From: Thermoanaerobaculia bacterium
Lineage (GTDB): Bacteria > Acidobacteriota > Thermoanaerobaculia > Gp7-AA8
NCBI GenBank assembly: GCA_035626775.1
Contig: DASPNA010000152.1
Span: 64,135-128,134, forward strand
Direction of reading: 5' to 3'
DNA: 64,000 nt
In this document: positions 1,160 to 63,479 of the stretch, one piece after another
How positions within the stretch are numbered: position 1 is the stretch's first letter
Layout: every line of letters starts with the position of its first letter
Translations under genes and position numbers: made by a program
Notes under the pieces: model-generated
Database searches by the model: none
What the model saw: only the letters and a program-made list of their open reading frames with translations
What the model was told of the DNA's origin: nothing

Positions 1160-2122
1160 TTACCGGGGGACTGCGATCTCGCTGAGCAGCTTCTGGAGGA
1201 ACCGCGCTTCTGGCGATACATCGCCGCGGCTCATGCGCCGGTCCTTCATCACGATGCGATGCGACAACACCGGCACCGCCAGGCGCTTCACATCCTCGGG
1301 GATCACGAAGTCGCGTCCGCCGACCATCGCCAGCGCCTGGCAGGCCTTGAAGTACGTGAGCGCGCCGCGGGTCGAGACGCCGAGGGCGACGTCGCCATGC
1401 GTGCGCGTGATCTGCACGATCAGCATCAGGTACTCGACCAGCGCCTCGCTGACGTGCACGTCGCCGACGCGCGCCTGCAGCTCGCGCACTTCATCGCCGT
1501 CGAGCACAGCCTCGAGATGTTCGAGCGCGTCCTGTCCGCCGCCGGAGCGGAGGAGTTGCTTCTCGTCATTCGCGCTCGGATAGCCGATGGTGAGCTTCAT
1601 GAGGAAGCGGTCGAGCTGCGATTCCGGCAGCGGATACGTGCCGACGTGCTCGATCGGATTCTGCGTGGCGATGACCAGGAACGGATCGGGCAGCGGCATG
1701 CGCCGCTTCTCGATGGTAATGATGCCTTCGCTCATCGCCTCGAGCAGTGCGGATTGCGATTTCGGTGTGGCGCGATTGATCTCGTCGGCGAGCAGAACGT
1801 TGGTGAAGACCGGGCCGGAGACGAACTCGAACTCCTGCAGGTCCTGGTTGTAGATGGTGACGCCGACGATGTCGGAGGGGAGCAGATCGCTCGTGAACTG
1901 GATGCGCTGAAAGCCGAGCGACAGCGAGCGCGCCAGCGCATGTGCGAGCGTGGTCTTGCCGACGCCGGGAACGTCCTCGAGGAGGATGTGTCCCTTCGCG
2001 AGCAACGCGGCGATGCAGAACTGGATCACCTCCGACTTGCCGCGGATGACACGTTCTACGTTCTGCTGCAGCGCCGAAATGCGGTCGAGAGAGCGCGGGA
2101 CCGGTACGGGTTGCGTCGACAT
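1160..2122 (-). CDS. moxR: MoxR-family AAA+ ATPase
   Basis: Walker A LLEDVPGVGKTTLAHALA, Walker B VLLADEINRATP, and ATQNP, all typical MoxR. The protein is 320 aa. Confidence 0.9.
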   Translation of the reverse strand: MSTQPVPVPRSLDRISALQQNVERVIRGKSEVIQFCIAALLAKGHILLEDVPGVGKTTLAHALARSLSLGFQRIQFTSDLLPSDIVGVTIYNQDLQEFEFVSGPVFTNVLLADEINRATPKSQSALLEAMSEGIITIEKRRMPLPDPFLVIATQNPIEHVGTYPLPESQLDRFLMKLTIGYPSANDEKQLLRSGGGQDALEHLEAVLDGDEVRELQARVGDVHVSEALVEYLMLIVQITRTHGDVALGVSTRGALTYFKACQALAMVGGRDFVIPEDVKRLAVPVLSHRIVMKDRRMSRGDVSPEARFLQKLLSEIAVPR

Positions 2123-2192: not shown

Positions 2193-2337
2193 CGGTCGGA
2201 GTACCTCGGAGTACCTCGGAGTTCCTCGGAGTACCTCGGGTTCCTCGGAGGGGCTCGGCAGTTCGTGGTTGAACTCCTCCGAGGAACTCCGAGGCACTCC
2301 GAGGTACTCCGAGGTACTCCGAGGAACCGAGGTACTA
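2193..2337. repeat. Family A composite hairpin repeat, copy A1. Tandem 10-bp units GAGTACCTCG/GAGTTCCTCG form a long imperfect inverted repeat.
   Basis: Left arm is 5 tandem units, followed by a central spacer, then right arm CTCCGAGGTA units (the reverse complement). Related copies lie at 32421-32517 and 47165-47268. Confidence 0.8.
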
Positions 2338-2924: not shown

Positions 2925-5900
2925 ATGAAAGAAAAATGCGCGGTTCAAGCGAGTGAAACAAGGCGGATCACGAAAGGAGCGGCGTTAAGGCAAACCGGCG
3001 GCGGCCGGACGCGAATTTACCGGATGCTGCTCGCGACTCTCTTTGTCGCTCTGTTCGCGACCTCGCCCTGGGCGGAGGCGCAACCCGCCCGGTGGAACTA
3101 CCTGAGGGATTGGTTCGATCTGACCACCGCCAGTGGCCTCGCGCAAGCCCAACAACACGCGTTATGGGTTCTCGACAATGAAAGCTGGTTCATCGCGAGC
3201 GGTTTTGGCAACGGCGTCCATTACAGGACCGCCGACATGCCCAGACTGCACATCAAGTTGGTGAGAGATGATCTCCGCAAGATTCAAGAGGCCGCGCAAA
3301 TGCGGGGGCTGCGGCCGCAACACCAGACCGCTCAATACCGCCTCGCGAACCAGGCGCCGTACAGCGTCACGATGGGCCCGGCTGCCTTGACCTTTCAAGG
3401 TGCGTCCGTGCGAATGATCGAGGGTACGCGATATGAGCAGACCATCAATCGCGAAATAGAAATCGGCGACATCGTCACCAAGTGCAACAAGTTCAACACG
3501 GTTTCTGCGTTTTCCGGGTGGGCCACCGAAGTGGTGGCGGATCCCACGTTCAATGGTTCGTACCTCGACTCCTACAAGAACCAGTGGCTGAAAGGTCGCC
3601 TGACGCGGACGGCAGTCGAGACATATCGCGAGCCCAAACCCGACAGCTGCAGCCGGCACGTGGCCCGGTATGTCTACCGCTACGAGTATCACGGTCCTGA
3701 CGGGAGGATCCTCGCTTTCTTCCAGCGTCCGCAGGAAGTACCGGGGACTTCGACGTGGACTGCGGACAGTTGTCAGACGCGACAACCGATCCCTGCCCCG
3801 GAGCCGGACCATTTCTGGTCTTCGGAAGGAAACGCCGCACTCGACACATCGAACAAATGCCGCCCGGTGATTCGGTGGGCAGACGGGTCGACGGAAGAGT
3901 TTCACATGGCCGAAAGCCAACGCGATGTGAGCGCGTTCTCGCCCGAGGTCGCCAAACCTTTCAGGCCGACGTGCGCCTCAACAGACCTCACGAACGACCT
4001 GCGTGCCAAGGACCGTAATGGCAACATCACCACCTATCGTTTCACCAGCACAACCGAGACCATGATCGATCCGCAGGGACGTGAGACCATTCTCACGTTC
4101 GAACCGACGGACGACCGCGGCTTCCGACGCCTGATCAGCGTCGACCTGCCGTCTGTTGGCGCTGCACCGCGTCACCGGTACACGATCCAGTGGCGCGCGC
4201 CGCTCCAGGTTTCTTTTGCATCGATCTGGCCCGATGTGACCTGCCGCACGAGAGAGGGAGCCGTTCAAGCCTGCGGCACGAGCTTCGTTCAATTGGTGGA
4301 CTCCGTCACGATCCCTGACGGGCGTCGCTACACGTTCGAGTATGGCCCCTGGGGGAATCTGACGCGAGTCACGGAGCCTGGCGGCGCCATTCGCGAGTTC
4401 CAGTACGGCGATGCGGCCAACCTGGCGTACGCACGAGCGGCGTCTACGGAATCGGACACACTCATCGATTCGACCGATTGCGGCGTCATGTGGTCGGAGG
4501 AAACTCTGCGCATGCACGCTCGTGGCCTGGTCCGCGAGCGAGTCCTGCCGGACGGCGTGGGCGGCGCTGTTTACGAGACGAAAACCAACATCGTGGTGGA
4601 AAGGCTGAATCCGCAGCTGTATCCGCAATGCGAATACGACATCGTCGGAGCGGCTACGCGCGGGCCGGATGGTTGCGCGCAGGTCTGGAGAGAGAACACG
4701 CTGCCCGACGGATCAGTCGTGCGAAACGGTACCGTCTCTCGTGCGATTCCTTTCCCGACGGACCATGAAGATGACGTATTCACGTTGCCGCCGTCCGTGC
4801 CGGTGCTCATCCACGGATGGAGCATCGGGCAAGAGCGTTGGTCCGGCCCAACGTTGCTCAGCGCGCAATACTCCGGCGATAAACAGACCGGCGAGCTCTA
4901 TTACGACTTCGATCTGGTCAAGGCGGTCACTCTGCCCGGCGCAATCCCGGCGAACGTCCGTCCGTCGAAGGCGATCTCCTTCAAGGACGGTTTGTACACG
5001 ACCTCAAATTTCGTCTATGGCAACGCAGTGGATATCGATCCAAATCCGACCGCGCAGGAGTTGCGTGACACGGAATCGGCTGTCTCGACGTGTCTGTTCG
5101 GTGGATTGGTCGTCGCGCGCGGCTGTACCCCGCCGGGTGGGCGTCCGCTCGTCCGTACGGACAACGCGTACGTCAATTATCACGGTCCGGCGATTGACGG
5201 CCCGAATCTTCTTGGACTGGCCGCGGCAAACCGCATTTACGGACCCAACTCCACGGGCACGGCATTTTCCACGACCGCTTTGGCGGAAACGTCGATCGCG
5301 TTCGATCAATTCGCCGTGGTACCGAGCGGTCGGCCAAGTTCGTCTCTCGACCCAAATCTCGGGCGAGCCGCCGGCACGCCGCGCGGGAACGCCACCAGAA
5401 CCACGCAGAGGGTGAGCGCCGGAAAATTCATTTCCAGCGAAATCCGGTATTTCGATACGGGCGACGTGCAGTCGAGTACCGATGCAATGAGACGCACAAT
5501 GACGTCGCTGCAGGATTTCTCATTGTGCAGTTCGAGCACGCCACGATGGACGACGACCACCACGAATGCGCTCGGCCATGTGGCGAGCATCACGGTTGAC
5601 TGCAGTTCCGGGTTGACGCTGAAGACGACTGACGCCAATGGTGAAAGTAGTTTTTCACAGTATGACCATTTAGGACGGTTCGTGGAAACGGCAGGTCCGG
5701 GAGACCAGCTCACGGCCTTGCCACAGTCAGGTGCCCAGGCGTTCACGCGCGCGCCGGACGCTCCGACAGGCGCAGGCACGAAGCCGGGTGACGCAAGGGC
5801 CGCAGGATGGAGGGAGTACCTCGATTTCGGCATCCTCGGCCGGCAGCGTACGGTGATCCATGACAGAGATGGTTCGCCGGACGGCTATTACGTCAAGAGT

Positions 5901-8900
5901 TTCATGGACGGCCTCGGGCGGACCGTACAGACGAGATCCGAAGCTGATCCGGCCAGGTCTGGTTTCGCAGAGGTGGTCTCGACTACGGTCTACGACGGTC
6001 TTGGCCGAGCAGTCAAGAGCCTCGTGCCCTGCTTCGCCGCGTCCAGCAGCAGCATCACGCCGCATTGCGGCTCGGTCGCCACCGAGATCGTATATGACGC
6101 TTTGAGCCGCCCGACAAAAGTCACCTCCCCTGGCGCGGTGACAGTGACCTCTGCTTTCACGCACCAGGACGGCCGCTGGCTCACCATCAATGTCGATGGA
6201 CGCGGGTTGACGACGAAGAGATTCTCGAACCTGCTCGGCCAGGTCGAGCAAATAGACCGGCAGTCCGCGCTCTGTGGCGGTTTCTGTACGGAAAGAGCCA
6301 CGTTCGACGCCGCCGGCCGAACCCTTACCCAGGGAGACGCAGAGGGAAACACCATCCGTTACACGTACGACGATCTCGGCCGACCGTTGTCGATGTCCGA
6401 CCCAAACCTGGGCAACTTGACTTATGCGTATGACGACAACGGAAACTTGACGCGGCAGGTTGATGCAAAGGGGCAGACGATCACATTCAACTATGACGCT
6501 CTGAATCGATTGACCCTCAAAGATTTGCCACCGGCCGGACCGAGCATCGAAGACGTCACCAATTTCTATGATGGCCAGGGACCGAAACCGCCCGATCCGG
6601 GGAGCGCGGCGGCGATCGCATCGATCGCTCCGAACGTGCGCGACGCCGGGACCGGCGCATTCACGCTGACTGTTGACGGCAGCAATTTCGTCGCCGGTTC
6701 TGTAGTGACTTTCAATGGTCAAAGCCGGGCCACGACCTTCGTTAGTTCGCAGCAACTGCGCGCCGCGATACTCGCCGGTGACGTCAACACTGCCGGCTCG
6801 TTCCCGGTGATGGTCGTGAGTCCAGCCCCTGGCGGCGCGTCGAATGCCGCGACGTTCGTCGTCAACGCACGACCAGTGGTCAGTGTGACGCGGCCTGCTG
6901 CGAGCGCGATCTTCGATGCGCCTGCCTCGATCATCGTGGAGGCTGCTGCGACCGACGGCGACGGCATCCGCCAAGTCGAGTTCTTCCAAGGTGCGGCAAC
7001 TTTGGGCGTTGACCAGACGGCGCCGTACTCGGTCAGCTGGAGCAGCGTTCCGGAGGGCACTTATCGATTGACGGCAGTCGCGACGGATACCCGCGGCAGC
7101 ACCACCACCTCGGCGCCGGTCGACGTCACTGTCCGGCCGGGCTCACCGGTGAACGCGTCACAGTTCGTTTCACAATCGGTCCCTGCTGTGATGGTGGCAG
7201 GGCGAACGTACAACGTTTCGGTCACGGTGCAGAACAGCGGTACTACGACATGGACCGCCGCTGATAAATACAATCTCGGCTCCGAGGGGCCGCGGGACAA
7301 CCAGACGTGGGGCTTACACCGCGCACCGCTTCCTGGGTCCGTGCCGCCAGGAGCGCAGGTCACGATCCCGTTCACGGTCACCGCGCCAGCCACACCGGGC
7401 GAGTACGGGTTCCAGTGGGGGATGGTGCAGGACATGGTGGGAGGAGGATGGTTCGGCGCCACCCCACGAGTCACCGTCCGTGCGGAATCGCCTGTGAATG
7501 CGTCACAGTTCGTTTCGCAATCGGTGCCTGCTGTGATGGTGGCAGGGCGAACGTACAACGTCTCGGTCACGGTGCAGAACAGCGGTACTACGACGTGGAC
7601 CGCCGCTGATAAATACAATCTCGGCTCCGAGGGGCCGCGGGACAACCAGACGTGGGGCTTACACCGCGCACCGCTTCCTGGATCCGTGCCGCCAGGAGCA
7701 CAGGTCACGATCCCGTTCACTGTCACCGCGCCAGCCACTCCGGGCGAGTACGGGTTCCAGTGGGGGATGGTGCGGGACATGGTGGGAGGAGGATGGTTCG
7801 GCGCCACCCCACGAGTCACGGTCCGTACGGAAGCACCGGTGAACGCCGCACTGTTCGTTTCACAATCGGTCCCTGCTGTGATGGCGGCAGGGCGAACGTA
7901 CGCCGTCTCGGTGACCATGCAGAACAGCGGTACTACGACATGGACTGCCGCTGATAAATACAATCTCGGCTCCGAGGGGCCGCGGGACAACCAGACGTGG
8001 GGCTTACACCGCGCACCGCTTCCTGGATCCGTGCCGCCCGGAGCGCAGGTCACGATCCAGTTCACGGTCACCGCGCCAGCCACTCCGGGCGAGTACGGCT
8101 TCCAGTGGGGGATGGTGCGGGACATGGTGGGAGGAGGATGGTTCGGCGCCACCCCACGAGTCACGGTCCGTACGGAAGCGGCGGTGAACGCGTCGCGCTT
8201 CGTTTCGCAAATCGTCCCTGCTGCGATGATCGCGGGGCGCACCTATACCGTCTCGGTGAAGATGCAGAACAGCGGTACTACGACCTGGACCGCGGCCGGC
8301 CTATACAACCTCGGCTCGCACGGGCCGCAGGACAACACGACATGGGGCTTGCATCGCACCCCGCTTCCGGCCTCAGTGCCGCCGGGTGCGGAGACGACGT
8401 TCCAGTTCACAGTCACGGCCCCAGCGACGCCGGCCAACTACGTCTTCCAGTGGCGCACCGTGCAGGACACCGTGCAGTGGTTCGGCGAACTGACACCGGC
8501 CGTCACGATCCCGGTGCTTTCCGCCGCGAAGACGGGGCTGATCGCGAGCTGGAACTTCGACGAGGGCATGGGTACGACGACCGCTGATGCCACTGGCAAT
8601 GGAAGCACGGGTACGGCGGGTAAGCTCGACTGGACAAAGGGACGTATGAATTCGGGACTGCGGTTCGTGAGCACAACCAACAACCCGGTGAGGATCAGCC
8701 CTTCGCCCAGGGTCTCTGCGCTGAGTAACGACTTCACGGTTTCGTTCTGGGCGCAGCCGGAGTCCGCGCATCAGATCGACGTGGCGAGCGGCAGCGGCGC
8801 TAGCGGTGTCACGGGCCAGAAATATGTGATTGGTCCGCGCTACGAGTCGTTTGGAGACGCAGGCATTGGCATCTCGCTCGGCAACAACGGAGTGAGTGTC

Positions 8901-9416
8901 TACGAACACAGCGCGAGTCACATGCCGGCAGTGCTGGTGTATTCGGCACCGATCAGCGGCTGGACGCACATCGCCGTGGTGTATGAAAACAAAAGGCCGA
9001 CGCTCTATGTCAATGGCACATCGGTGCTGATCGGCGGGACCAGCTCGCGGTCGAATGTATACGCCGTGCCGGCCGACATCGGCGGGATGGCCTACGGCTA
9101 TTACGACGGTCTGCTGGATGAGGTGCGCATTCACGACAGTGCGCTGAGCCCGGCAACGATCGCGGCAATGGCTCAGGAGACTGTGGCGGATTTGAAAATC
9201 GATGGAGAAACCGGGACAGTGGTGGCGGATGCGTCGGCCGATGCTGCGCAACCGATGGCCCTGCTGAGCGGAACCGTGTCGGCCGACGGCCGGACCACGT
9301 GGATCGACCCCACCTCCTCCTCGACCGGAGACCTCCGTACATTCTCGGCGCGCCTGCGCAAAGCATCGTCTGTTTTTCCACTCACGAATCAACACCGACG
9401 GTTGGAGCCGCTATGA
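2925..9416 (+). CDS. Giant secreted multidomain protein: signal peptide, N-terminal YD/RHS-repeat region, IPT/TIG domain, bacterial Ig-like domain, 4 tandem NBR1-like Ig domains, C-terminal LamG/concanavalin-like domain
   Basis: Good RBS GAGGGA before ATG 2925 and signal-like [22 protein letters not shown] repeats: [36 protein letters not shown]: [33 protein letters not shown]. Four ~115-aa repeats: [31 protein letters not shown]...[16 protein letters not shown]. LamG-like: [12 protein letters not shown]...FTVSFWAQP. Confidence 0.85.
7141..8520 (+). repeat. Intragenic tandem DNA repeat, 4 x ~345 bp. Copies 1-3 are almost identical at nucleotide level and copy 4 is diverged. Each unit encodes one NBR1-like Ig domain.
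   Basis: Unit boundaries at about 7141, 7486, 7831 and 8176. Copies 1-3 differ at only a few positions. The antisense ORF 7061-8242 is a by-product of the repeat. Confidence 0.8.
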
Positions 9417-18030: not shown

Positions 18031-18190
18031 GTGGAGCGCCGGCGCGTTTACGGAGTGCGGCGACGCCAGTCGCCGCTTTCCAACGCCGCAGCGGAAGCTG
18101 CGGCTGGCCCGCGGAGGCTGGCGCCTCCGCATAGAAAGCGGCAGCTGGCGCTGCCGCACTCCACACGGCGCGGGACGCCGGCGCTCCGCC
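18031..18190. repeat. Family C GC-rich nested palindromic element (C1) in the divergent ETF-QO / wecA-like intergenic region
   Basis: Outer arms GTGGAGCGCCGGCGC / GCGCCGGCGCTCC. Inner arms GGAGTGCGGCGACGCCAGTCGCCGC / GCGGCAGCTGGCGCTGCCGCACTCC. Related to copies at 22351, 26067 and 29162. Confidence 0.6.
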
Positions 18191-28316: not shown

Positions 28317-29206
28317 GACTCTCCGTCGTGATGGCGGTGTTCAACGGCGCGCGCACGCTCGACGCGACGCTGCAGAGCATCCTCACCCAGAGCGAGCGTG
28401 ATTTCGAGTTGATCGCGATCGACGACGGCTCGACCGACGAAACACCCGCGATCCTGGCGCGCTGCGAAGATCCACGACTGCGCTTGATCACGCAGGCCAA
28501 TGCGGGACTCACGCGCGCGCTCATCCGCGGTTGCGGCGAGGCGCGCGCCGACGTCATCGCGCGCCACGATTGCGGCGATCGTTCGCGGCCCGAGCGGTTC
28601 GCGCGGCAGCTCGCGCTACTTGAACAGGGACACGCGGTCGTGTCCTGTGCGACGCGTTTCGTCGATGGCGATGGTGACTTTCTGTATGTCTCGCGCGCGA
28701 ATGGCGAGGAAGTGCGGCGCAGTCTGGTCAGCGATGACGCGCGTGCCATTCACGCGCTGCCGCATCACGGCTCGGCGATGTTCACACGCGACGCATATGA
28801 GCGCGCGGGCGGGTATCGCGAAGAGTTTCGCGTTGCGCAGGATCTCGATCTCTGGATCCGTATCGCGCGCGACGGTGGGACGTTCGCGATCGATGACGAA
28901 GTTCTGTACGAGGCCACGGTCGACGCGCGCAGCATCAGCGGAACCGCGCGCGACGCGCAGGTGCGGCTTACCGAGATCGCGGTTGCGTTGCGCGATGGTC
29001 GCGGGTCGCTCGATGACGCGCGAGCGGTACAACCAGCGCGAATGACACCGCGCGGCGAAGCGGCGGCGTTGTATTTCATCGCGAGGTGTCTGCTGCGGCA
29101 GAAGAATCGGAAGGGGTGGCGGATGTTACTCGATGCGATACGGCGCGATCCGCTGCTGCTATGGAGTGCGGCAGCGAAGCTGCCGCTTTCAAAGCGGCGG
29201 CGATAG
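28313..29206 (+). CDS. Glycosyltransferase, GT2 family
   Basis: ATGA overlap with the upstream gene. SVVMAVFNGARTL...ELIAIDDGSTDET. The C-terminus runs into repeat C3. Confidence 0.8.
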   Translation: MRLSVVMAVFNGARTLDATLQSILTQSERDFELIAIDDGSTDETPAILARCEDPRLRLITQANAGLTRALIRGCGEARADVIARHDCGDRSRPERFARQLALLEQGHAVVSCATRFVDGDGDFLYVSRANGEEVRRSLVSDDARAIHALPHHGSAMFTRDAYERAGGYREEFRVAQDLDLWIRIARDGGTFAIDDEVLYEATVDARSISGTARDAQVRLTEIAVALRDGRGSLDDARAVQPARMTPRGEAAALYFIARCLLRQKNRKGWRMLLDAIRRDPLLLWSAAAKLPLSKRRR

Positions 29207-29260
29207 CCGCCGCACTTCAGGGTGCGGCAGCGAAGCTGCCGGCTTTGCCGCCGCACTCCA
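29162..29260. repeat. Family C palindromic element, copy C3 (two tandem hairpin modules)
   Basis: GGAGTGCGGCAGCGAAGCTGCCGC ... GCCGCCGCACTTCAGGGTGCGGCAGCGAAGCTGCCGGCTTTGCCGCCGCACTCC. Confidence 0.65.
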
Positions 29261-30332
29261 TCATGATCTCGGCGATGCGGTCGCCGATCGCGGTCCAGTT
29301 GTATTGCGGCAGGACCGATGCGTGCGCGTTCGACGCCAGTCTTGCGCGCAGCTCTTCATCGCGCGCGAGCATTTCGATCGCGTTCGCCAGCGCGAGCGGA
29401 TCGCCGGGTGGAACGAGCAGCCCGTTCTCGCCGTCGCGCACGACGGCACGATTCGCATCGATGTTCGTCGCGATCACCGGCAGGCCGCACGCGAGCGCCT
29501 CGAGCACCACGAGCGCGAAGCCCTCGCTGAGCGTGGCGGTGATGAAGACGTCGTGCTCGGAATAGAGGCGGCCGAGGGAAGAGCGGGGAACGCTGCCGAG
29601 GAATTGGACGTGCGGGAGATCGGCGGCGGCGCCGCGCAGGCCGGTCTCCAGCGCTCCGCTGCCGGCGATAGTCAACTCCGCGTCGTGAACATTGCGCATC
29701 GCCGCAACCAGATCATCGACACCTTTTTCGATCGAAAGGCGACCAACGCTGATCAAACGCAGCGGCCGCGACGAAGTACGCACGACCGGCACGTCGATGC
29801 CGAGGTCGTGGAGGTCGATGCCATTGGGAACGACTTCGACGCGGCGCGCCCCGTGTCGCCGCACCACATCGGCAAGATGCGGCGCGACTACGAACACGAC
29901 GTCCGCGGAGCGATACGCGCGCGGTGCGATCCAGCGATAGAACGCAGTGAGCCGTGGGTCGTACGTTCCTTTCGGCCGTTCGAAGATGTCCCCGTGCACG
30001 AAGAACCCGACAAGGATGCCCAGGCCACGCGTGCCGATGTGCGCGGCGCTATGCGCGTGAACGAGGATGAAATCGGGTTTGTGCAGCGACTGCAGCACCA
30101 CTCGCGCGCCGCGGCCGAAGAGGACTTCATCCGGCACATGACGGAAGCGGCGCAGCGAATAAAGGTCCGGCAGCCGCACCCGCGCCCGCACCATTCCGTG
30201 CGTGTCTTCCGGAAACGTATCGGAGACGAGCGTGACCTGCGCGTGGCGCGTCAGCTCGCGCGCCTGGCGCATCGCCACCGAGGCGACAGCACCCGCTCCG
30301 CCGAGGGCACGGCAAACAATCGCAACGTGCAT
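29217..30332 (-). CDS. Glycosyltransferase, GT4 family
   Basis: GT-B organisation with a C-terminal E..E/G-rich nucleotide-sugar motif (VLEALACGLPVIAT). Confidence 0.8.
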   Translation of the reverse strand: MHVAIVCRALGGAGAVASVAMRQARELTRHAQVTLVSDTFPEDTHGMVRARVRLPDLYSLRRFRHVPDEVLFGRGARVVLQSLHKPDFILVHAHSAAHIGTRGLGILVGFFVHGDIFERPKGTYDPRLTAFYRWIAPRAYRSADVVFVVAPHLADVVRRHGARRVEVVPNGIDLHDLGIDVPVVRTSSRPLRLISVGRLSIEKGVDDLVAAMRNVHDAELTIAGSGALETGLRGAAADLPHVQFLGSVPRSSLGRLYSEHDVFITATLSEGFALVVLEALACGLPVIATNIDANRAVVRDGENGLLVPPGDPLALANAIEMLARDEELRARLASNAHASVLPQYNWTAIGDRIAEIMMECGGKAGSFAAAP

Positions 30333-30400: not shown

Positions 30401-31558
30401 ATGAAAGTCGCGCTCATTGCTTCGCACGTCATTCAGTACCAGGCGCCGTTTTTTCGGTTGCTGGCGGCGGAGCGCGTGCTCGATCTCGACGTGATCTTCT
30501 GCTCGACGGACGGCGCGCACGTCTATCGCGACGAAGAAATGCAAACCACCTTTCGCTGGGACCTCGACCTCCTCGGCGGCTATCGCCACCGCTTCCTTCG
30601 CAACTTCGGATTCGGCGAGGGCTACACGCGCCTCATCAACCCCGGCATCGTCCCCGCGCTTTTGTTCGGCAAATACGACGCGGCCATCTTCTTCCTTGGC
30701 TGGGGGACCATTACGTCGCTCATGGGCATCGCCGCGTGCCGCATGAGCGGCACTCCGATCCTGATGTACGGCGACAGCAGCTTCCCGCCGCCGGCGAACA
30801 CGATCGCGTCGCGAGTGCGCGCGGGCGTGTTGCGCACGATCTTTGGCGTGACCGATCGCTTCCTGGTCAGCGGCGTTTTGAATGCCGACTACTACCGCCG
30901 CTACGGTGCCGATGAAAGGCGCTTCCATCTCGTGCCGTGGGCCATCGACAACATCCGCTTCGAGGAGGGCAGCCGCTTCGCGCCCGGCGAGCGCGAGGCG
31001 ATGCGCGAGCGCTTCGGCATCCGCTCCGATCAACTGGCCATCGTCTTCTCCGCGAAGTTCCTGCCGCGCAAGGATCCGATGACGCTGCTCCGCGCGGTCG
31101 ATGCGATGCGGCATCGCGATCGCGCGGCGGTGATTTTTCTCGGTCACGGCGAGTTGCGCGATGAGATGGAACGCTTTGCGCGCGAGCGCAGCCTCTCCGT
31201 CCATTTCGCCGGCTTCGTGAATCAATCGCAGCTGCCAAAACACTATGCCGCGGCGGACGTCTTCGTGTTGCCGTCCGTCTACGAGCCGCGCGGCACGGTG
31301 ATCAATGAGGCGATGGCGTCGGGGCTGCCGGTGATCATCAGCGACCGCTGCGGTCCGATTGCCGACATCGTGCAGCACGGCGAGAACGGTTTCGTCTTCG
31401 CGGCCGGCGACGTCGCGGCGCTCGCGCGCCATCTCGACGAGCTCGTCGCGGATCCCGAGCTGCGCGCGCGCATGGCGCTGCGTTCGCGCGAGATCATCTC
31501 GACCTGGGACTACGCGCGCGGAGTAGAAGGTGTGTTGGAGGCTCTGCGGGCGTGCTGA
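30401..31558 (+). CDS. Glycosyltransferase, GT4 family
   Basis: VLPSVYEPRGTVINEAMASGLPVIISD motif. Confidence 0.8.
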   Translation: MKVALIASHVIQYQAPFFRLLAAERVLDLDVIFCSTDGAHVYRDEEMQTTFRWDLDLLGGYRHRFLRNFGFGEGYTRLINPGIVPALLFGKYDAAIFFLGWGTITSLMGIAACRMSGTPILMYGDSSFPPPANTIASRVRAGVLRTIFGVTDRFLVSGVLNADYYRRYGADERRFHLVPWAIDNIRFEEGSRFAPGEREAMRERFGIRSDQLAIVFSAKFLPRKDPMTLLRAVDAMRHRDRAAVIFLGHGELRDEMERFARERSLSVHFAGFVNQSQLPKHYAAADVFVLPSVYEPRGTVINEAMASGLPVIISDRCGPIADIVQHGENGFVFAAGDVAALARHLDELVADPELRARMALRSREIISTWDYARGVEGVLEALRAC

Positions 31559-32415
31559 CCATCGCCATTCCGACGTACGAGCGCGGCGTGATCCTGTGCG
31601 ACACGATCGAGCTGCTCCTCGCCGTCGAGCCGCGCGCTCTCGAGATCGTGATCGTCGATCAGACGCGCGAACATCCGCCGGACGTCGCCGCGCGATTGCA
31701 GGCATGGCAGGACGCGAACGCAATCCGCGTGATTCATCTCGCGCAACCGTCGATCCCGCACGCGATGAACACGGCGCTGCGCGAGGCGACGTCCGCGCAG
31801 GTGCTGTTCCTCGACGACGACATCATCCCGGACAAGAACCTCGTCCGCGCGCACGCCAGCGCGCTCGCCGAGCTCGGCGTGTGGGCCGTGGTCGGACAAG
31901 TGCTGCAACCGGGCGAAACGCCGGCGCACTTTCCCGAAGGCGTACTGCGCCGCGGGTTCATCCGCGATCTCGAATTTCGCTTCACGCATGACACCGCGTG
32001 CGACGTGCGGAACGTGATGGCCGGAAACCTGTCGGTCGATCGCGAGCGCGCGCTTTCGATCGGCGGCTTCGATGAGCGCTACATCGCGGTCGCGTATCGC
32101 TTCGAGACCGATTTCGCGTTGCGCCTCGTCGCCGCCGGCGGCCGCATCCGCTATGAGCCGGCCGCATCCATTCGTCATCTCAAAGCGCCTGGCGGCGGCG
32201 TGCGCATGTGGGGCGATCACCGCACCAGCATCTCGCCGGCACATTCGATGGGCGACTACTATTTCGCGCGCAAACACATCCCCGCATTCTGGCGCTACGT
32301 TGCACGCAGACTGATCAACAACGTGGCCACGCGCTATCACCTGCGCCACCCCTGGACTATCCCCGGCAAATTGCTCGGGGAAGTGCGGGGGCTGGTTCGC
32401 GCGTTGCGCACCTGA
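31552..32415 (+). CDS. Glycosyltransferase, GT2 family
   Basis: TIAIPTYERG...LFLDDD. GTG start overlaps the upstream stop. Confidence 0.75.
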   Translation: MLTIAIPTYERGVILCDTIELLLAVEPRALEIVIVDQTREHPPDVAARLQAWQDANAIRVIHLAQPSIPHAMNTALREATSAQVLFLDDDIIPDKNLVRAHASALAELGVWAVVGQVLQPGETPAHFPEGVLRRGFIRDLEFRFTHDTACDVRNVMAGNLSVDRERALSIGGFDERYIAVAYRFETDFALRLVAAGGRIRYEPAASIRHLKAPGGGVRMWGDHRTSISPAHSMGDYYFARKHIPAFWRYVARRLINNVATRYHLRHPWTIPGKLLGEVRGLVRALRT

Positions 32416-32420
32416 GAAAA

Positions 32421-32517
32421 CAGTTCCTCGGAGCACCTCGGTTCCTCGGAGTTCCTCGGAGGAGCTGAGACTCCCGTCCGACGAACCCCGAGGTACTCTG
32501 AGGAAACCGAGGTACTG
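32421..32517. repeat. Family A hairpin repeat, copy A2
   Basis: AGTTCCTCGGAGCACCTCGGTTCCTCGGAGTTCCTCGGAGG ... CCCCGAGGTACTCTGAGGAAACCGAGGTACTG. Confidence 0.75.
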
Positions 32518-32526
32518 ACTCCCCCG

Positions 32527-33921
32527 ATGGCCTTTGCGCTCTACCTGCTGTTCCTCGCCGCCTCCTGCGCGTACGCATGGGTGGACTGGCGGCGTGGCTG
32601 GTTCCTGGTCATGGTCTGCGGCGTGATCCAGGATCCGGTGCGCAAGCTGTCGCCGAACTCGCCGGTGGTCATCTCGTTCGCGGTCGTCGTGGTGTATGCG
32701 GTGATCCTGTTTGCCGCGCGCAACGAGATGCGCGCGCACGCGCTCGAGTTCACGCGCCGGTTTCGCAGCGTCTCGACCGGCATCATGGTCTTCCTCTTCC
32801 TGCTCCTCATCGCGGCCGTCAATGGCCTGGTCACGTACGGCATCGACAAGTGGCAGGCGCCGCTGGTCAGCCTCATCACGTACGTGCTGCCGGTCGTCGC
32901 CGCGCTGCTCGGATACACGTGGCTGCATCGCGAAGAAACGATGCTGCGCTGGTTCCGCCTGTATTCGGCGATCACCTCCATCGCGCTCATCGGCACCGTC
33001 CTCGAGTACCTTCGCGTCCCCTCGCGCATCCTGGGCATGGTGTCGTTCGAAGGCGACTACATCCGCCACCTTCCCGGCATCCAGATCCGCATGCTCTCCG
33101 GCATCTATCGCAGCCCTGATGTCATGGCGTGGCACGCCGGCATGCTCACCACGATCGCCGCCGCGATGGCCCTGCGCGCGGGACTGCGGCGGCAGATGCT
33201 GATCTGGTCCGCGGTCGCAGGCTGGGGCTTCTTCAACTGCCTGATCGCGGGACGCCGCAAGGCGGTGTATTTCGTCATCATCTTCGTCGGCGTGTTTCTG
33301 TGGCGCTACCTCGGGCGCATCAAGGCGTCGCAGGTCTTCGCGAGCGTCGGCTTGCTGATCGTCCTCTCCGCCGTCGTGAACCAGCTCTCGTCCGACGAAG
33401 CGACCAGTGTCTACACGCGCACGGCCGTGGCATCGAAGCGCGAGCTGAGCGACCGTTTCGAAGGCGGCGTCATGCAGACGTTCCGGGAAGTCGGTTACAT
33501 GGGCGCCGGCCTCGGCACCGCCACGCAGGGCGTCCACCATCTCCTCGGCAAGAGCGGCATCGGCTGGCAGGAAGGCGGAATGGGCAAGGTGGCGATGGAG
33601 CTCGGGCTCCCCGGCTTGCTCGCGTTGCTGCTGATGGTTCCGATCATTGGACGGATGCTGTTGCTCCTGACGCGCATCGGCGACGTCGAAGGCTCCTCGC
33701 AGTTCATCCGCGTGACGCTGTTCGCGCTGGTCGCGGCGAACGCCGCCGGCTTCATCGGGTCCGCACAGGCGTACACCGACGCAGTGCTCGGACTCACGGC
33801 GGGCTTCCTCGTCGGCGCGCTGTTCGCGACCGCGGCGCTCGACGAGCGACTGGCTGCAACGAAGAAGGCGCAGACAGTCGAGAAAGCATCGCCGCTCACT
33901 CCCATCCCCTCTGCCGTCTGA
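32527..33921 (+). CDS. Wzy_C / O-antigen ligase-polymerase family integral membrane protein
   Basis: About 10-12 TM segments. Motif YMGAGLGTATQGVHHLLGKSGIGWQEGGMGKVAMELGLPGLL resembles Wzy_C. Confidence 0.65.
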   Translation: MAFALYLLFLAASCAYAWVDWRRGWFLVMVCGVIQDPVRKLSPNSPVVISFAVVVVYAVILFAARNEMRAHALEFTRRFRSVSTGIMVFLFLLLIAAVNGLVTYGIDKWQAPLVSLITYVLPVVAALLGYTWLHREETMLRWFRLYSAITSIALIGTVLEYLRVPSRILGMVSFEGDYIRHLPGIQIRMLSGIYRSPDVMAWHAGMLTTIAAAMALRAGLRRQMLIWSAVAGWGFFNCLIAGRRKAVYFVIIFVGVFLWRYLGRIKASQVFASVGLLIVLSAVVNQLSSDEATSVYTRTAVASKRELSDRFEGGVMQTFREVGYMGAGLGTATQGVHHLLGKSGIGWQEGGMGKVAMELGLPGLLALLLMVPIIGRMLLLLTRIGDVEGSSQFIRVTLFALVAANAAGFIGSAQAYTDAVLGLTAGFLVGALFATAALDERLAATKKAQTVEKASPLTPIPSAV

Positions 33922-35800: not shown

Positions 35801-36460
35801 CTACTTCGCCAACAACGTGCACGGGACGACGTTGAACCCACTCCATACCGTGTTCGTCGCCGCGACGATCGGCTGATCCGAGGTGATGCGCAACGTGATC
35901 GCCACGTTCGTATCCGTACTCAGGTTCCCCTGCGCCGTGAACCACGACGTCATCAACGTGTTCGCCGCAGCAATCGGCACGGTCGCCGCGCCGGTCTGAC
36001 CGGGATAGAGCGGCGCCGGATCGCCGGGAGGAATCGTGCCCGGGCTGACCGCAATCGGCGCTCCGGCGAGGTTCGTCCCGTTCATGTTCAGGAAATGCGC
36101 AGCCACGTTCGCTGTCGCGGTGCCGCCGTTGTAGACGAAGAGATACTCCGTCGTCGTGCCGGCGTTGTGATAGTTGATCGGCGTACAGACGTAGACGTAC
36201 GGCGCACCGCCGCCGCCGGATTCACCGGCCGGACCTTGCGGACCTTCGGGTCCCTGCGGACCTTCGGGTCCCTGCGGTCCCGCGGGACCTTCCTGATTCC
36301 ACGACACACGCGTTTCGTTGGCGTGGCACAACGTGGTCGCATTGACCATTCGCATCCCGCCATTGCCTTTGTTGATGCACGCTTCGAGGACAGCCGCTTC
36401 CATCACCTGGGAGAACGCGGCGACCACCATGAGAACCGCGAACGAACGGAGTACACGCAT
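35801..36460 (-). CDS. Secreted collagen-like (GPQ/GPE triple-helix repeat) protein of unknown function
   Basis: Signal MRVLRSFAVLMVVAAFSQVMEA. EGPAGPQGPEGPQGPEGPQGPAGESGGGG. Cys-containing N-region and a Thr/Asn/Ala-rich C-domain. Confidence 0.6.
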   Translation of the reverse strand: MRVLRSFAVLMVVAAFSQVMEAAVLEACINKGNGGMRMVNATTLCHANETRVSWNQEGPAGPQGPEGPQGPEGPQGPAGESGGGGAPYVYVCTPINYHNAGTTTEYLFVYNGGTATANVAAHFLNMNGTNLAGAPIAVSPGTIPPGDPAPLYPGQTGAATVPIAAANTLMTSWFTAQGNLSTDTNVAITLRITSDQPIVAATNTVWSGFNVVPCTLLAK

Positions 36461-44946: not shown

Positions 44947-47163
44947 ATGGATCTCAATACGCAGCAGCACGACGTCCATCTCCTCCACTACTGGAACGTC
45001 ATCCGGAAGCGGTGGAAGGTCGCGCTGGCGATCGTGATCGTCGTGATGCTGGGAACGTTCCTGGCGAGCTACTTCTCGAAGCCGCTCTACGTTTCCACGA
45101 TCCGCATTCAGATCGACCGCGAATCGAACACGGTCACGATCGAAGACATCTTCGGCATCGCCGCGTCCGATCAGGAGTTCCTGCAGACGCAGTACGAGCT
45201 GCTCAAGAGCCGCGGTCTCGCGTTGCGCGTGGTCGAGGACCACAAGCTCTACAACGATCGGGAGCTTTACCCTCCCGGCGTGGCCGGCAAGACTCCCGCC
45301 GAAGTGCAGGGCATCAAAGAAGGCATCGCCGGCGGACTTCTCGGCGGCATCACCATCACGCCGGTGCGCGGCACGTCGCTGGTCGACATCTCATACATCG
45401 GCGGCTCGCCGCGGCTCGCGCAGAAGATCGCCGAGGCATGGGGCGATTCGTTCATGCGGATGAACATCGCCAAAAAACTCGATGCGGTGCAGCAGGCCAG
45501 CGACTTCCTCGATCGGCAGATTGCCGCCGTGCAGCAAGACCTCGAAGGCAGCCGCCGCGAATTGCAGGAGTACGGCCGCACGCACGGCATCATCTCGATG
45601 GGCGAGGACAACAGCGACGACGTCGTGATGTCGAAGCTCGAACAGCTCAATCGCAGCCTGACCGAGGCGCAGAACGCGGTGTTCCAGAAGGAAGCGGCGT
45701 TCGGCGCGTTGCAGCGCACCGACGCGGAAGCGATTGCAGCGAACGACGAGGTCGTGCAACGTCTCACCAGCGAGTTGAGCGCGTTGCAGCGCGAGTACAG
45801 CGAGAAGCTCTCGACGCTCAAGGAAGGCCATCCCGACATGAAGCGGCTGGCCTCCCAGATCGAGAAGGCGCGCGCGTCACGCTCGCAGTCGGTCCAGCAG
45901 TCGTATCGCAAGCAGCTCGAATCTGCGCGCGCCGAATACGCGGCCGCGCAGGCGCAGGCGAACTCGATCCGCTCCGCTTACAACCAGCAGCGCAGTGAAG
46001 CGCAACGTCTGAACGCCGATTCCGCCGGTTATCTCGACCTGCGCATGGCGGTCGAGAACAAGCAGGCGCTTCTCGGTTCACTGCAGAAGCAGCTCAGCGA
46101 AACGCAGGTCGCAGCGCGCTTGCGCGGCTCGGCCTCGTCGAACATCCACTGGGTCGATCACGCGCCGCTGCCCGGCGGCCGCTTCAACCTGTCGATGAAG
46201 AAGAACCTCCAGAACGCGTTTCCGCTTGGCATGATCCTCGGCTTCGCGGCGATCTTCTTCCTCGAGTACATGGATCGTTCGATCAAGACGCCGGAAGAAC
46301 TGGAGCGGCTGACGCAGTTCGCATCGCTCGGCGTGATTCCGTCCGCGTCATCGATGGCCGCGCGTCAGGCCGGATATGGTCAGGAGTACGGACGCGCGCT
46401 GCCTCGCCTGCGCGCGGTCGACACCGGCGACAAGTCCGCGGGTGTCGAGCTGATCCCGCACACCGATGCACGCTCGCCCGTGTCGGAAGCGTATCGCGCG
46501 TTCCGGACGTCGCTGCTGCTCGCCTCCGCGGCGTCGCCCAAGATCATCGTCATCACGTCGTCGTTCGCGCGCGAAGGAAAGACCACGACGTCCGTCAACC
46601 TCGCCACGGTACTCGCGCAAATGGGCAAGCCGGTGTTGCTCGTGGACGCTGATCTCCGCCGCCCACGCCTGCAGAAGGTGTTCACCGGCAAGATGAACCT
46701 CGGCCTCGTGAACTACCTCGCCGCGAACATTCCGTTCGAAGACATCATCCAGGCGACCGACGTGCCGAACCTTTCGGTCGTGTTGTCGGGACCGATTCCG
46801 CCGAATCCATCCGAGCTGCTCGCGTCGGATCGGATGAAGCACATCATCGAGGAAGTGCGCAGCAAGTACGCGTACGTGATCTTCGACTCGCCGCCCGTGC
46901 TGGCGGTAACGGACGCGATCGTGCTCGCCGCGAACGCGGACGGCGTCGTGCTGACCGTGCATGGCGGCCAGACTCCGCGCGAGCTCGTGCAGCGCTCCTC
47001 CGAGCGCCTCCGTCAGGCCAACATCCCCGTCCTCGGCGCGATCCTCAACAACCTCGACCTGCATCAGTACGGCTACTCGTACAAGAGGAGCTACTACGAC
47101 TACTACGAGTCGAACGAGGACGAGGGGACGCCCGCGGCGGAACGCCCGCGCAAGTCTTTGTAG
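44947..47163 (+). CDS. Wzc/GumC-like polysaccharide co-polymerase with C-terminal BY-kinase (tyrosine autokinase) domain
   Basis: N-terminal Wzz-like TM and coiled-coil region. C-terminal Walker A SSFAREGKTTTSVNLA plus VLLVDADLRRP and Walker B YVIFDSPP. Confidence 0.85.
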   Translation: MDLNTQQHDVHLLHYWNVIRKRWKVALAIVIVVMLGTFLASYFSKPLYVSTIRIQIDRESNTVTIEDIFGIAASDQEFLQTQYELLKSRGLALRVVEDHKLYNDRELYPPGVAGKTPAEVQGIKEGIAGGLLGGITITPVRGTSLVDISYIGGSPRLAQKIAEAWGDSFMRMNIAKKLDAVQQASDFLDRQIAAVQQDLEGSRRELQEYGRTHGIISMGEDNSDDVVMSKLEQLNRSLTEAQNAVFQKEAAFGALQRTDAEAIAANDEVVQRLTSELSALQREYSEKLSTLKEGHPDMKRLASQIEKARASRSQSVQQSYRKQLESARAEYAAAQAQANSIRSAYNQQRSEAQRLNADSAGYLDLRMAVENKQALLGSLQKQLSETQVAARLRGSASSNIHWVDHAPLPGGRFNLSMKKNLQNAFPLGMILGFAAIFFLEYMDRSIKTPEELERLTQFASLGVIPSASSMAARQAGYGQEYGRALPRLRAVDTGDKSAGVELIPHTDARSPVSEAYRAFRTSLLLASAASPKIIVITSSFAREGKTTTSVNLATVLAQMGKPVLLVDADLRRPRLQKVFTGKMNLGLVNYLAANIPFEDIIQATDVPNLSVVLSGPIPPNPSELLASDRMKHIIEEVRSKYAYVIFDSPPVLAVTDAIVLAANADGVVLTVHGGQTPRELVQRSSERLRQANIPVLGAILNNLDLHQYGYSYKRSYYDYYESNEDEGTPAAERPRKSL

Positions 47164-47164
47164 A

Positions 47165-47268
47165 CGAGTACCTCGGGTACCTCGGAGTTCCTCGGAGGGG
47201 CGTGGTCAGGAGATACTCCTTCTCCCCCGAGGAACTCCGAGGTACTCCGAGGAACTCCGAGGTACTCG
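47165..47268. repeat. Family A hairpin repeat, copy A3 (between wzc-like and cpsB-like)
   Basis: GAGTACCTCGGGTACCTCGGAGTTCCTCGGAGG ... CCCCGAGGAACTCCGAGGTACTCCGAGGAACTCCGAGGTACTCG. Confidence 0.8.
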
Positions 47269-47270
47269 TA

Positions 47271-48065
47271 ATGATCGACATCCACCACCACTGCCTGCCC
47301 GGTGTCGATGACGGTCCGGGCGAGCTCGATGAAGCGGTCGATCTCTGCGCCGCCGCAGCGGAAGCGGGGATCGAAACGATCGTGGCGACGCCGCATGTGT
47401 TGCGCGGGCGGTGGCGGGTGTTCTCGCGGCTCGAGTTGCAATCGCGGCTCGACGAGCTCCGCGCACGCGTCGGAGAAACGCCACGCATCCTCCTCGGCTG
47501 CGAATACTTTTTCAGTCACGACATGGCCGATGTGCTGCGCGAAGGCACGTCCGTGTTCGCGCTGGCGGGCAGCCGTTACGTGCTGCTCGAGCTGCCGGCG
47601 AACAGCGTGCCGCCGATGTTCAATCAGCCGCTGTATCGTGCGCAGCTCGACGGATGGCTGCCAATCCTCGCGCATCCGGAGCGCAACACGGTCTTTCAAG
47701 CGAATCCGGAGATCCTCGCGGCGCTCATCGGCCATGGCCTGCGCGTGCAGCTCACAGCGACGAGCCTGACCGGCGCATTTGGATCGCACGCGCGTGCGGC
47801 GGCGGAGACGCTGCTGCAGCGCCGGCTCGTGCATTTCGTGGCCACGGATGCGCATAACACGAGCAAGCGTCCGCCGCGGATGGCCGAGGCGCTGGCGGCG
47901 CTGCGGGAGCTCGTCGGAGAGGAAGTCGCGACGGCGTTGACCGTCGATAACCCGCGCGCCGTGATCGAAAACCGGGCGCTGCCGTACGATCCGGAACCGC
48001 AGGAAGTCGACTCTCCCGGACTTTTCACGCGACTCCGCGGGTTTTTCCGCCCGAACCAGGCTTAA
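47271..48065 (+). CDS. CpsB/YwqE-type PHP-family protein-tyrosine phosphatase
   Basis: MIDIHHHCLPGVDDGP ... ATPHV ... HPER ... TDAHN motifs. Confidence 0.8.
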   Translation: MIDIHHHCLPGVDDGPGELDEAVDLCAAAAEAGIETIVATPHVLRGRWRVFSRLELQSRLDELRARVGETPRILLGCEYFFSHDMADVLREGTSVFALAGSRYVLLELPANSVPPMFNQPLYRAQLDGWLPILAHPERNTVFQANPEILAALIGHGLRVQLTATSLTGAFGSHARAAAETLLQRRLVHFVATDAHNTSKRPPRMAEALAALRELVGEEVATALTVDNPRAVIENRALPYDPEPQEVDSPGLFTRLRGFFRPNQA

Positions 48066-62886: not shown

Positions 62887-62971
<85 letters not shown>

Positions 62972-63288: not shown

Positions 63289-63377
63289 GGATTCTCCGAT
63301 GCGCTGACCCGAAACGGGGCAGGGACGCGGATTGTTCCCGAGTCGCGGAGGTTCGTCAAGCCCCTGTTTGGGCGGAG

Positions 63378-63479
63378 TCGCAGAGTCTCAGAGTCTCAGA
63401 GTCTCAGAGGGTTTTGCGGCATGCGCTGCGCCTGAAGAATACCCTCTGAGACTCTGAGACTCTGAGACTCTGCGACTCG
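63378..63479. repeat. Element D: hairpin built from 3 tandem CAGAGTCT units per arm in the tpiA-secG intergenic region
   Basis: GTCGCAGAGTCTCAGAGTCTCAGAGTCTCAGAGGGT-(loop)-ACCCTCTGAGACTCTGAGACTCTGAGACTCTGCGAC. Confidence 0.8.

Follow-up and report, generated by a model that had tools for sequence, protein, structure and literature searches.

The stretch of DNA analysed here, 64,000 nucleotides of a contig from a Thermoanaerobaculia bacterium (DASPNA010000152.1; "the window" below denotes this whole stretch), carries three copies of a repeat that we call Family A. At each of the three loci an array of the tandem unit GAGT[A/T]CCTCG is opposed, across a short unique loop, by an array of reverse-complement units. 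A first-pass annotation, made from the letters alone, had described such facing arrays, and re-reading of the sequence found them present as claimed at all three coordinates; Tandem Repeats Finder (TRF) reports the arrays independently. Family A is a non-coding repeat that occupies 100 or more sites in soil Acidobacteriota of the class Thermoanaerobaculia. Two of the window copies lie, as the same annotation proposed, within a same-strand polysaccharide operon.

Three copies in the window

The 5′ arm of copy 1 (2199-2247) consists of five units (GAGTACCTCG twice, GAGTTCCTCG, GAGTACCTCG again and GGTTCCTCG) and is followed by a unique loop of 32 nt (2248-2279), with GAGG...CCTC at its edges, and by a 3′ arm (2280-2337) of six reverse-complement units, each CGAGG[A/T/C]AC plus a linker. 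Copy 2 starts 5 nt past the TGA stop codon of a GT2 family glycosyltransferase gene (31552-32415, plus strand; PF00535, E=1.8e-13). Its 5′ arm (32421-32458) has four units, one of them degenerate, its loop (32459-32488) is a unique stretch of 30 nt, and its 3′ arm (32489-32517), of three units that are partly decayed, ends 9 nt ahead of the ATG at 32527 of a polytopic membrane protein gene (32527-33921, plus strand). Copy 3 lies between the gene of a Wzc-like tyrosine kinase/chain-length protein (44947-47163, plus strand; PF02706 Wzz and PF13614) and that of a CpsB/CapC-type phosphatase (47271-48065, plus strand; PF19567, E=6.8e-55). Its 5′ arm (47166-47194, three units) starts 2 nt past the TAG stop codon (47161-47163), its unique 33-nt loop spans 47195-47227, and its 3′ arm (47228-47267, four units) ends 3 nt ahead of the cpsB ATG (47271). 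According to TRF, this right arm is a duplicated 20-bp block of two units (T,A), and its last unit places GAGG 8 nt 5′ of the cpsB ATG.

Several details of the original description had to be amended. Both arms were thought to hold the same number of units; the counts are instead 5/6, 4/3 and 3/4. A stem of 40-60 bp, proposed for each locus, is found in copy 1 only (~55 bp), copies 2 and 3 pairing over ~30-40 bp. Pfam bears out the gene neighbourhoods GT2|membrane protein and Wzc|CpsB; the label 'wzy-like' corresponds to a weak match to a membrane-protein family, EamA, which is the sole match of the gene downstream of copy 2 and falls below the Pfam cut-off. A decayed regulator next to copy 1 is not supported: the divergent gap in which it lies separates a MoxR-type AAA+ ATPase gene (1160-2122, minus strand; PF07726, E=3.6e-62), whose start is ~70 nt from the element, from an RHS-repeat gene of 2163 aa (2925-9416) on the other side. 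The latter, encoding an RHS/Ig-like/CARDB protein, itself contains 3.8 copies of a 345-bp unit (90% match) at 7146-8453.

The window copies are neither chance occurrences nor low-complexity artefacts, both being ruled out by the excess of a 13-mer, by the folding z-scores and by independent assemblies that match copy 3. Allowing up to two mismatches, the 13-mer GAGTWCCTCGGAG, which covers the join between two units, has 30 occurrences in the window where 3.0 are expected; 0 of 100 shuffles reach 30. On the plus/minus strands, RNA folding z-scores are -11.9/-12.2 for copy 1, -4.2/-5.2 for copy 2 and -7.9/-8.8 for copy 3; folded as single-stranded DNA, the same copies score -11.2, -4.3 and -7.3. 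Copy 3 is reproduced with 100% identity in three independently assembled contigs from different samples, one of which ends within the right arm; the element is thus genuine, though assembly-breaking. The only contigs with exactly matching protein are identical to the window and are thus uninformative on strain-level variation. A coding repeat is ruled out as well, copies 2 and 3 being bracketed by the stop and start codons of Pfam-confirmed genes. Because Family A arrays are open in all six frames, spurious open reading frames (ORFs) run through them, for example at 1566-2594 on the minus strand and at 47202-48065, the latter with a false upstream start.

Dispersal, remodelling and sister families

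Species-representative genomes were scanned with a two-unit pattern, in blocks of 8 kb and with all counts being lower bounds. The supposition that the repeat family extends beyond the window was borne out: at least 104 blocks were found, and 101 of the matches listed come from ten Thermoanaerobaculia/Acidobacteriota metagenome-assembled genomes (MAGs), with at least 3-23 blocks each. Syntenic genes in these ten MAGs are ~70-75% identical to those of the window, which therefore derives from a related species. In viral (phage) contigs no Family A copy was found (0 matches). Single solo Family-A-like arrays occur in Pirellulaceae, Armatimonadia and Phycisphaeraceae MAGs (L037:7908-7957, L030:4083-4104 and L100); they may be chance, coding repeats or mis-binned contigs. 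Arrays are also found at the extreme ends of contigs L006, L012, L016, L024, L049, L055, L071 and L186, from MAGs and metagenomes. Their presence at many contig ends indicates that the elements fragment short-read assemblies.

The listed loci contain 125 arrays, 69 of them forming clean hairpins; solo arrays and strongly lopsided pairs also occur. The median element is 99 bp long and its median fold pairs 44 bases with a ΔG of about -84 kcal/mol; the two arms contain on average 4.7 and 4.3 cores (range 2-18) around a loop of 21 nt. The unit, initially given as 10 bp, is in fact an 8-mer core, GT[T/A]CCTCG, plus a purine linker of 0-3 nt, so that units measure 8-11 bp. The linker after the core is GA in 136 cases, G in 43, absent in 32 and GG in 13, and the other arm has the same spectrum. 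Array order is invariant, the unit U being 5′ and its reverse complement U′ 3′ in 69/69 hairpin copies and the order U′...U being found in none. The element termini are simply the outermost unit (NRGTWCCTCG ... CGAGGWACYN), beyond which the flanks are variable.

Syntenic loci without the element exist in relatives, as had been presumed, and provide three filled/empty comparisons. At a site where L083 has an operon junction of 18 nt, L013 holds a copy; L088 holds one where the orthologous site of L021 is empty; and the junction GT2|membrane protein, filled by copy 2 in the window, is empty in its orthologue in L072. Family A is multi-copy across at least 10 species and is cleanly gained or lost at intergenic sites without target-site duplication (TSD), the longest flank repeat being 1.65 nt against 1.61 nt in controls. 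For L013/L083, a loop derived from the target site is ruled out, since the empty site is wholly explained by the flanks. A unit-like seed, AAGTTCC, is present at one empty site.

The two arms of Family A are internally homogeneous and yet are not mirror images of each other. Linker length is equal at the same rank of both arms in 47% of cases against a null of 46-47%, and the A/T variant in 54% against 53%; in L041 and L091 an all-A arm even lies opposite an all-T arm (AAAA facing TTTT). Arms equal in unit number are found in 25/65 copies only. Together with the duplicated 20-bp block in copy 3, these unequal and unmirrored arms show that each arm evolves alone by slippage. Such independent remodelling by replication slippage is also apparent in one-unit indels between orthologues: L106 and L174 (89% identity between their cpsB genes) are set apart by an 8-nt indel of one unit. 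Accordingly, inverted duplication of one arm and pairing-driven maintenance are both unsupported for Family A, as its arms are not mirrored. Between orthologues, a copy at the same site in L011 and L090 has arms 73-75% identical and loops 46% identical, against 49% for random sequence; in the pair L105/L177, which belongs to a sister family, the arms are 82-86% and the loop 59% identical, against 48%. Arm identity is thus high and loop identity near random, so that arms must be either constrained or regenerated while loops drift.

The loops have nothing in common. Their similarity between copies does not exceed that of shuffles (top pairwise score 10 versus 11) and they do not fold by themselves. 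That they represent decayed central units was considered and rejected, unit-likeness being weak (z=3.7) and devoid of left/right polarity. No ORF is present between widely spaced arms, and no recurrent neighbour protein family, and no recurrent transposase, was found among 568 predicted proteins. A composite mobile element with a conserved core can likewise be dismissed: the 150-350-bp 'loops' of one MAG contain a different, nested palindromic repeat, which unique sequence connects to the arms. This nested repeat, cctgtcatcc(c/t)gagc...gctc(g/a)ggatgacagg, of ~150-250 bp, lies inside the loops of Family A copies at L068:1690-2270, L082:1810-2240, L036:5460-5990, L070:2700-3180, L099:3650-4010 and L005:1860-2240, and is also present at the wzc|cpsB junction of two CpsB relatives (L108 and L116). 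The suggestion of a family resembling MITEs (miniature inverted-repeat transposable elements) fits only loosely, since there is no TSD and no conserved internal sequence, and no parent insertion sequence (IS) was found among the neighbouring genes.

The first-pass annotation was right about a dispersed family and overlooked many further unit families of the same architecture. A TRF survey of all DNA examined yielded 95 mirrored arrays in 28 unit families, mostly of heptamers, and several of these families recur at different loci and in different genomes. The architecture of the class is that of two convergent short-tandem-repeat arrays, with ~4 units per arm, around a unique centre of ~20 nt. 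Each unit family has a single polarity, and the 5′ arm has more G than C in 17 families and less in 4 (p=0.007). This polarity rule agrees with the G-rich arrays of Xanthomonas, which are 'always convergent', and the geometry is that of a head-to-head telomere fusion. One recurrent sister, Family B, is present in the window itself at 63372-63480, where four copies of the 8-bp unit GAGTCTCA and four of TGAGACTC flank a 30-nt loop edged by GAGGG...CCCTC; it is also found at L023:7333-7427 and L040:1607-1736. Unlike those of Family A, the two arms of Family B are perfect mirror images down to the outermost variant unit GAGTCGCA, and an origin by inverted duplication, or maintenance driven by pairing, is possible for this family. 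The units of both families contain GAGT...CTC and CTCNGAG.

The site of copy 3 deserves particular attention. Among 79 relatives of the window CpsB fetched from soil metagenomes, 69 wzc|cpsB junctions were resolved; at least 15 of these 69 hold hairpins of this architecture, built from at least 12 unit types, versus ~3% of other gaps. Since only ~10 such hairpins are present in ~380 kb elsewhere in the same loci, wzc|cpsB is a hot spot. The unit types found there include GCTGTTGA, CAGCTGT, GTTGGGC, GTGTCGG, GTAGGCA, GGTTGGC, GTTGCTC, GGCAGAA, GGATGAA, GTTGCCG, GAGTTGC, GAGTGAC and GAGTTCT; examples among L105-L183 are L105:774-867, L117:873-974 and L131:2852-2950. The units of L105 (AGCTGTTG) and L106 (AGCTGTAC) agree at all but 2 of 8 positions, a hint that a unit can turn over in place. 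In other relatives the stop and start codons overlap or are separated by a gap of 20-21 nt. An array-free clade (L129, L135 and L138-L170, ~35 loci) carries a mini-hairpin, CGGCGAGG-N4-CCTCGC, in the 20-21 nt before the cpsB ATG, which may sequester a GAGG Shine-Dalgarno-like motif.

A few other repeats were encountered. In a mirrored array at L116:4356-4455, tandem repetition of the unit GCTGGTG spells the E. coli Chi octamer GCTGGTGG, which is probably a coincidence. Two hairpins of the window (18052-18162 and 29161-29261) have common arms, GGAGTGCGGC(A/G)...GCCGCACTCC, and look like a third palindromic repeat family of this genome. The 18-bp tandem repeat at 36237-36286 encodes, on the minus strand, the collagen-like Gly-X-Y repeat GPAGPQGPEGPQGPEGPQGP and is not a hairpin element.

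Gene positions, folding and possible origins

All 48 scorable copies of Family A lie between called genes (30 co-directional, 7 convergent and 11 divergent pairs), a result partly built into the method because elements were masked as barriers to the gene caller. On the stop side, 22/44 distances are at most 19 nt and 14/44 are 3-6 nt, and the element often fills the entire gap; in the 17 well-resolved co-directional cases, the median distance given by the crude caller is 5 nt to the stop codon versus 26 nt to the start codon. An attenuator or intrinsic terminator is unlikely, since a T-tract (or A-tract) accompanies only 3/62 copies and the window copies show no terminator matches; no promoter motif was found at them either. 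In Rfam the elements have no match at the gathering threshold, a permissive scan returning sub-threshold matches to eukaryotic miRNA precursors on both strands; the sole match in the window at that threshold is a tRNA gene (62890-62971, minus strand). In 16 copies it is the sense strand that folds better, in 27 the antisense strand (p=0.41). With both strands folding equally well, the palindromic symmetry belongs to the DNA, and there is therefore no sign of tuning at the RNA level. The role in mRNA processing or stability once proposed for the repeats remains conceivable, but sense strands that fold no better than antisense strands do not favour it.

Taken together, these observations suggest that Family A is probably the decamer representative within a class of non-coding, dispersed DNA elements that are selfish or neutral at the DNA level and are remodelled by slippage. 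A selfish or near-neutral element would survive where a self-folding insert is harmless. This would hold above all between co-directional genes, where the folded stem would keep the upstream stop codon and the downstream start codon adjacent and would hence be tolerated. Inside operons, the element would be co-transcribed as a hairpin of 30-55 bp with its foot less than 16 nt past the stop codon. By analogy with the stop-proximal repetitive extragenic palindromes (REPs) of E. coli, such a hairpin would stall terminating ribosomes, block 3′ exonucleases and offer a substrate to RNase III. The GT2:membrane-protein and Wzc:CpsB expression ratios would then shift, this being a by-product and no designed function.

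Several points weigh against this interpretation. We identified no insertion mechanism. The gene calls in the loci come from a crude GC3-based caller, and copies abut stop codons even in seemingly large gaps (L008, L057 and L104). The occupancy of wzc|cpsB could mean that a hairpin is selected for at that site. Finally, conserved arms (73-86%) next to loops at random level (46-59% versus 48-49%) imply constraint on the unit or its regeneration, which pure neutrality does not explain. Ordinary transposition is a poor fit too: polarity is fixed, the arms are independent and the loops unique, units are irregular and TSD is lacking. Neither a conserved target 5′ of the element, in the style of IS200/IS605, nor a Tc1/IS630-like TA duplication with CAGT ends was seen, and palindromic targets, found for only ~5% of copies, do not provide an insertion rule; complementarity between flanks is rare.

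Mobility could instead be provided in trans. It is conceivable, if unlikely, that Family A belongs to the REP/REPIN type and owes its movement to an HUH tyrosine transposase (RAYT or TIRYT-like) whose single gene copy lies elsewhere in the genome; this enzyme would recognize the unit array as single-stranded DNA, each arm being one 'REP' and the pair of arms a dimer with a variable spacer. REP dimers are inverted pairs with spacers of 20-100 bp of variable sequence, include heterodimers, generate no TSD and insert into palindromes (PMC3733652, PMC3116915, PMC8266576). The unique spacers, independent arms and lack of TSD of Family A agree with such a scheme, as does the fact that the stem runs on into the flanks in a few copies, for example L001. 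However, the termini bear no GTAG/CGTC tag and nothing conserved beyond the unit, single arms do not self-fold (z = +0.4, +1.7 and -0.06), and a phmmer search with E. coli RayT (E up to 10) found no RAYT-like ORF in the 1.15 Mb examined. The absence of a recurrent family among the 568 neighbouring proteins points the same way, and at least 28 unit families would require many cognate enzymes. Selection by the host for an RNA element, with the hairpin kept at operon junctions to set relative cistron expression (by stalling ribosomes at the stop codon, coupling translation, allowing processing by RNase III or protecting 3′ ends), also appears improbable. The enrichment at wzc|cpsB (at least 15/69 junctions, at least 12 unit types) and the mini-hairpin CGGCGAGG-N4-CCTCGC of another clade at the same place would be consistent with this explanation, and so would the greater conservation of arms than of loops between orthologues and the GAGG that the last unit of copy 3 supplies 8 nt ahead of the cpsB ATG. 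The foot of the stem is 3-13 nt from the stop codon, inside the range of less than 16 nt in which, according to PMC12306157, E. coli REPs lower translation. Against this, the sense strand folds no better than the antisense strand, arm variants are uncompensated, and close relatives do without a hairpin, their stop and start codons overlapping; moreover, copy 1 and 11/48 copies overall lie between divergent genes, and a single unit is found at more than 100 unrelated junctions.

It is tempting to speculate that the elements are not transposed at all but are scars of repair, formed de novo when a break is healed by templated, reiterative addition of units to both 3′ ends and the ends are joined through filler DNA; the adding activity would be reverse-transcriptase-like or a slipping polymerase, and the product a bacterial equivalent of a head-to-head telomere fusion. 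This scenario predicts the fixed polarity, with the unit strand running 5′ to 3′ towards the centre on both sides (69/69 copies), as well as independent and unequal arms, irregular units of 8-11 bp, unique loops and the lack of TSD. The G-richer strand is 5′ in 17 unit families versus 4, the Xanthomonas pairs are 'always convergent' (PMC4692102), a unit-like seed (AAGTTCC) is present at an empty site, and re-use of one fragile junction by different unit families would find an explanation. We nevertheless regard repair as very unlikely: no such enzyme is known in bacteria and none turned up here, Family A itself is G/C-neutral, solo arrays exist, the seed is a single case, and slippage acting on an inserted element can produce every one of the listed features too. 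Least plausible, and in our opinion barely credible, is a role as phased sites on the DNA to which a nucleoid or topology protein would bind (compare gyrase or IHF at BIMEs), with selection acting at the DNA level. Conservation appears to concern the unit sequence more than pairing, the period of Family A is close to one helical turn, and both strands are equivalent. On the other hand, most sister families have periods of 7-8 bp, linker variation of 0-3 nt within an arm destroys phasing, the units number in the dozens, and no candidate protein is known.

Relation to known repeat systems

Xanthomonas, cyanobacteria and Beggiatoaceae have for decades been known to carry dispersed identical short tandem repeats, for which, to our knowledge, no mechanism of origin or spread has been established. 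Family A is an element of this known but mechanistically unexplained kind, here in a phylum where it was not described before; nothing specific was found in the literature on the Family A sequence or on Thermoanaerobaculia repeats. As the first-pass annotation recognized, it is neither CRISPR nor a classic REP. In CRISPRs, direct repeats of 21-48 bp alternate regularly with unique spacers of about their own length, whereas Family A units stand head to tail with linkers of 0-3 nt and the second array is inverted. Integron attC sites consist of R''/R' core sites, RYYYAAC ... GTTRRRY, around a variable centre and form cassette arrays next to intI. The ends of Family A, GTTCCTC/GAGGAAC, have pyrimidines where RRR is required (no search for intI was made), the elements sit at conserved operon junctions, and relatives without the element show no gain or loss of genes; attC sites are accordingly rejected.

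In common with REP, BIME and REPIN sequences, Family A is high-copy and extragenic, forms an inverted doublet around a less conserved spacer that folds into one long hairpin, lacks TSD and lies close to stop codons (REPs often within 15 nt). REPs are, however, single self-folding palindromes of 20-50 nt that follow GTAG or CGTC and are associated with RAYT, in contrast to the untagged tandem arrays that form the arms of Family A, which do not self-fold and for which no RAYT was found in 1.15 Mb. PMC12306157, citing Liang 2015 and Newbury 1987, describes REPs as protecting upstream mRNA and stalling terminating ribosomes, with E. coli REPs less than 16 nt from a stop codon lowering translation. 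By this analogy, Family A elements would probably alter expression ratios within operons, for instance that of the Wzc/CpsB kinase-phosphatase pair. With MITEs such as Correia/NEMIS and ERIC, Family A shares small size, lack of coding capacity, inverted repeats, dispersal, presence/absence polymorphism and, presumably, frequent co-transcription. Unlike Family A copies, which have only the unit in common, those of a MITE are alike over their entire internal sequence, carry defined terminal inverted repeats and TSD and are derived from IS elements. The cyanobacterial STRR heptamers (Calothrix, cited in PMC4692102) and the TAACTGA repeats of Beggiatoaceae (PMC4679880) are likewise dispersed intergenic tandem arrays of one 7-nt unit. 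In contrast to Family A, these arrays are mostly direct, with one inverted set in 170 in Beggiatoa (PMC4679880) and few pairs in Nostoc (PMC4692102), and the TAACTGA repeats adjoin start codons on the upstream side and do not follow stop codons.

The closest known analogue of Family A, compared by published description, is the convergent GGGAATC pairs of Xanthomonas, which are of the same poorly understood kind. Rehm 2015 (PLoS One, PMC4692102) described ~180-185 dispersed arrays of this heptamer per genome in Xanthomonas campestris and X. axonopodis, most commonly of 4 units, among them 70-75 pairs per genome that are 'always' convergent and capable of forming stem-loops. These arrays are 89-93% intergenic, mostly between co-directional genes, at 28 nt from the upstream ORF versus 160 nt from the downstream ORF; they are transcribed, are unlinked to IS elements and vary in length between related species (PMC4692102). 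Family A has the same features: a short unit (5-11 nt) dispersed in tandem, convergent pairing around a short spacer, ~4 units per array in variable number, and an intergenic location nearer the upstream stop than the downstream start. Going by its position inside operons, it is presumably transcribed as well. It is thus not a new kind of element, since convergent pairs of dispersed ~4-unit arrays hugging upstream stops were known from Xanthomonas (PMC4692102).

In practical terms, the elements break short-read assemblies of Acidobacteriota MAGs and create spurious ORFs. The most useful outcome of the analysis lies at the level of the class, with its many unit families, its re-used junction and its polarity rule. 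Any mechanism will have to accommodate copies that have the unit alone in common, a fixed polarity, independent arms, unique loops and no TSD. Apart from the phylum, Family A differs from the GGGAATC arrays in its 10-bp unit (an 8-bp core plus a variable linker, with a period of 8-11 bp), in having no run of three or more G, and in coexisting with many other unit families. Since Family A lacks G-runs, the G-quadruplex reading offered for Xanthomonas is ruled out as a general explanation. Unit families that coexist by the dozen, filled and empty sites that are clean and one junction re-occupied by many families make the Thermoanaerobaculia/Acidobacteriota a richer system in which to study elements of this kind.

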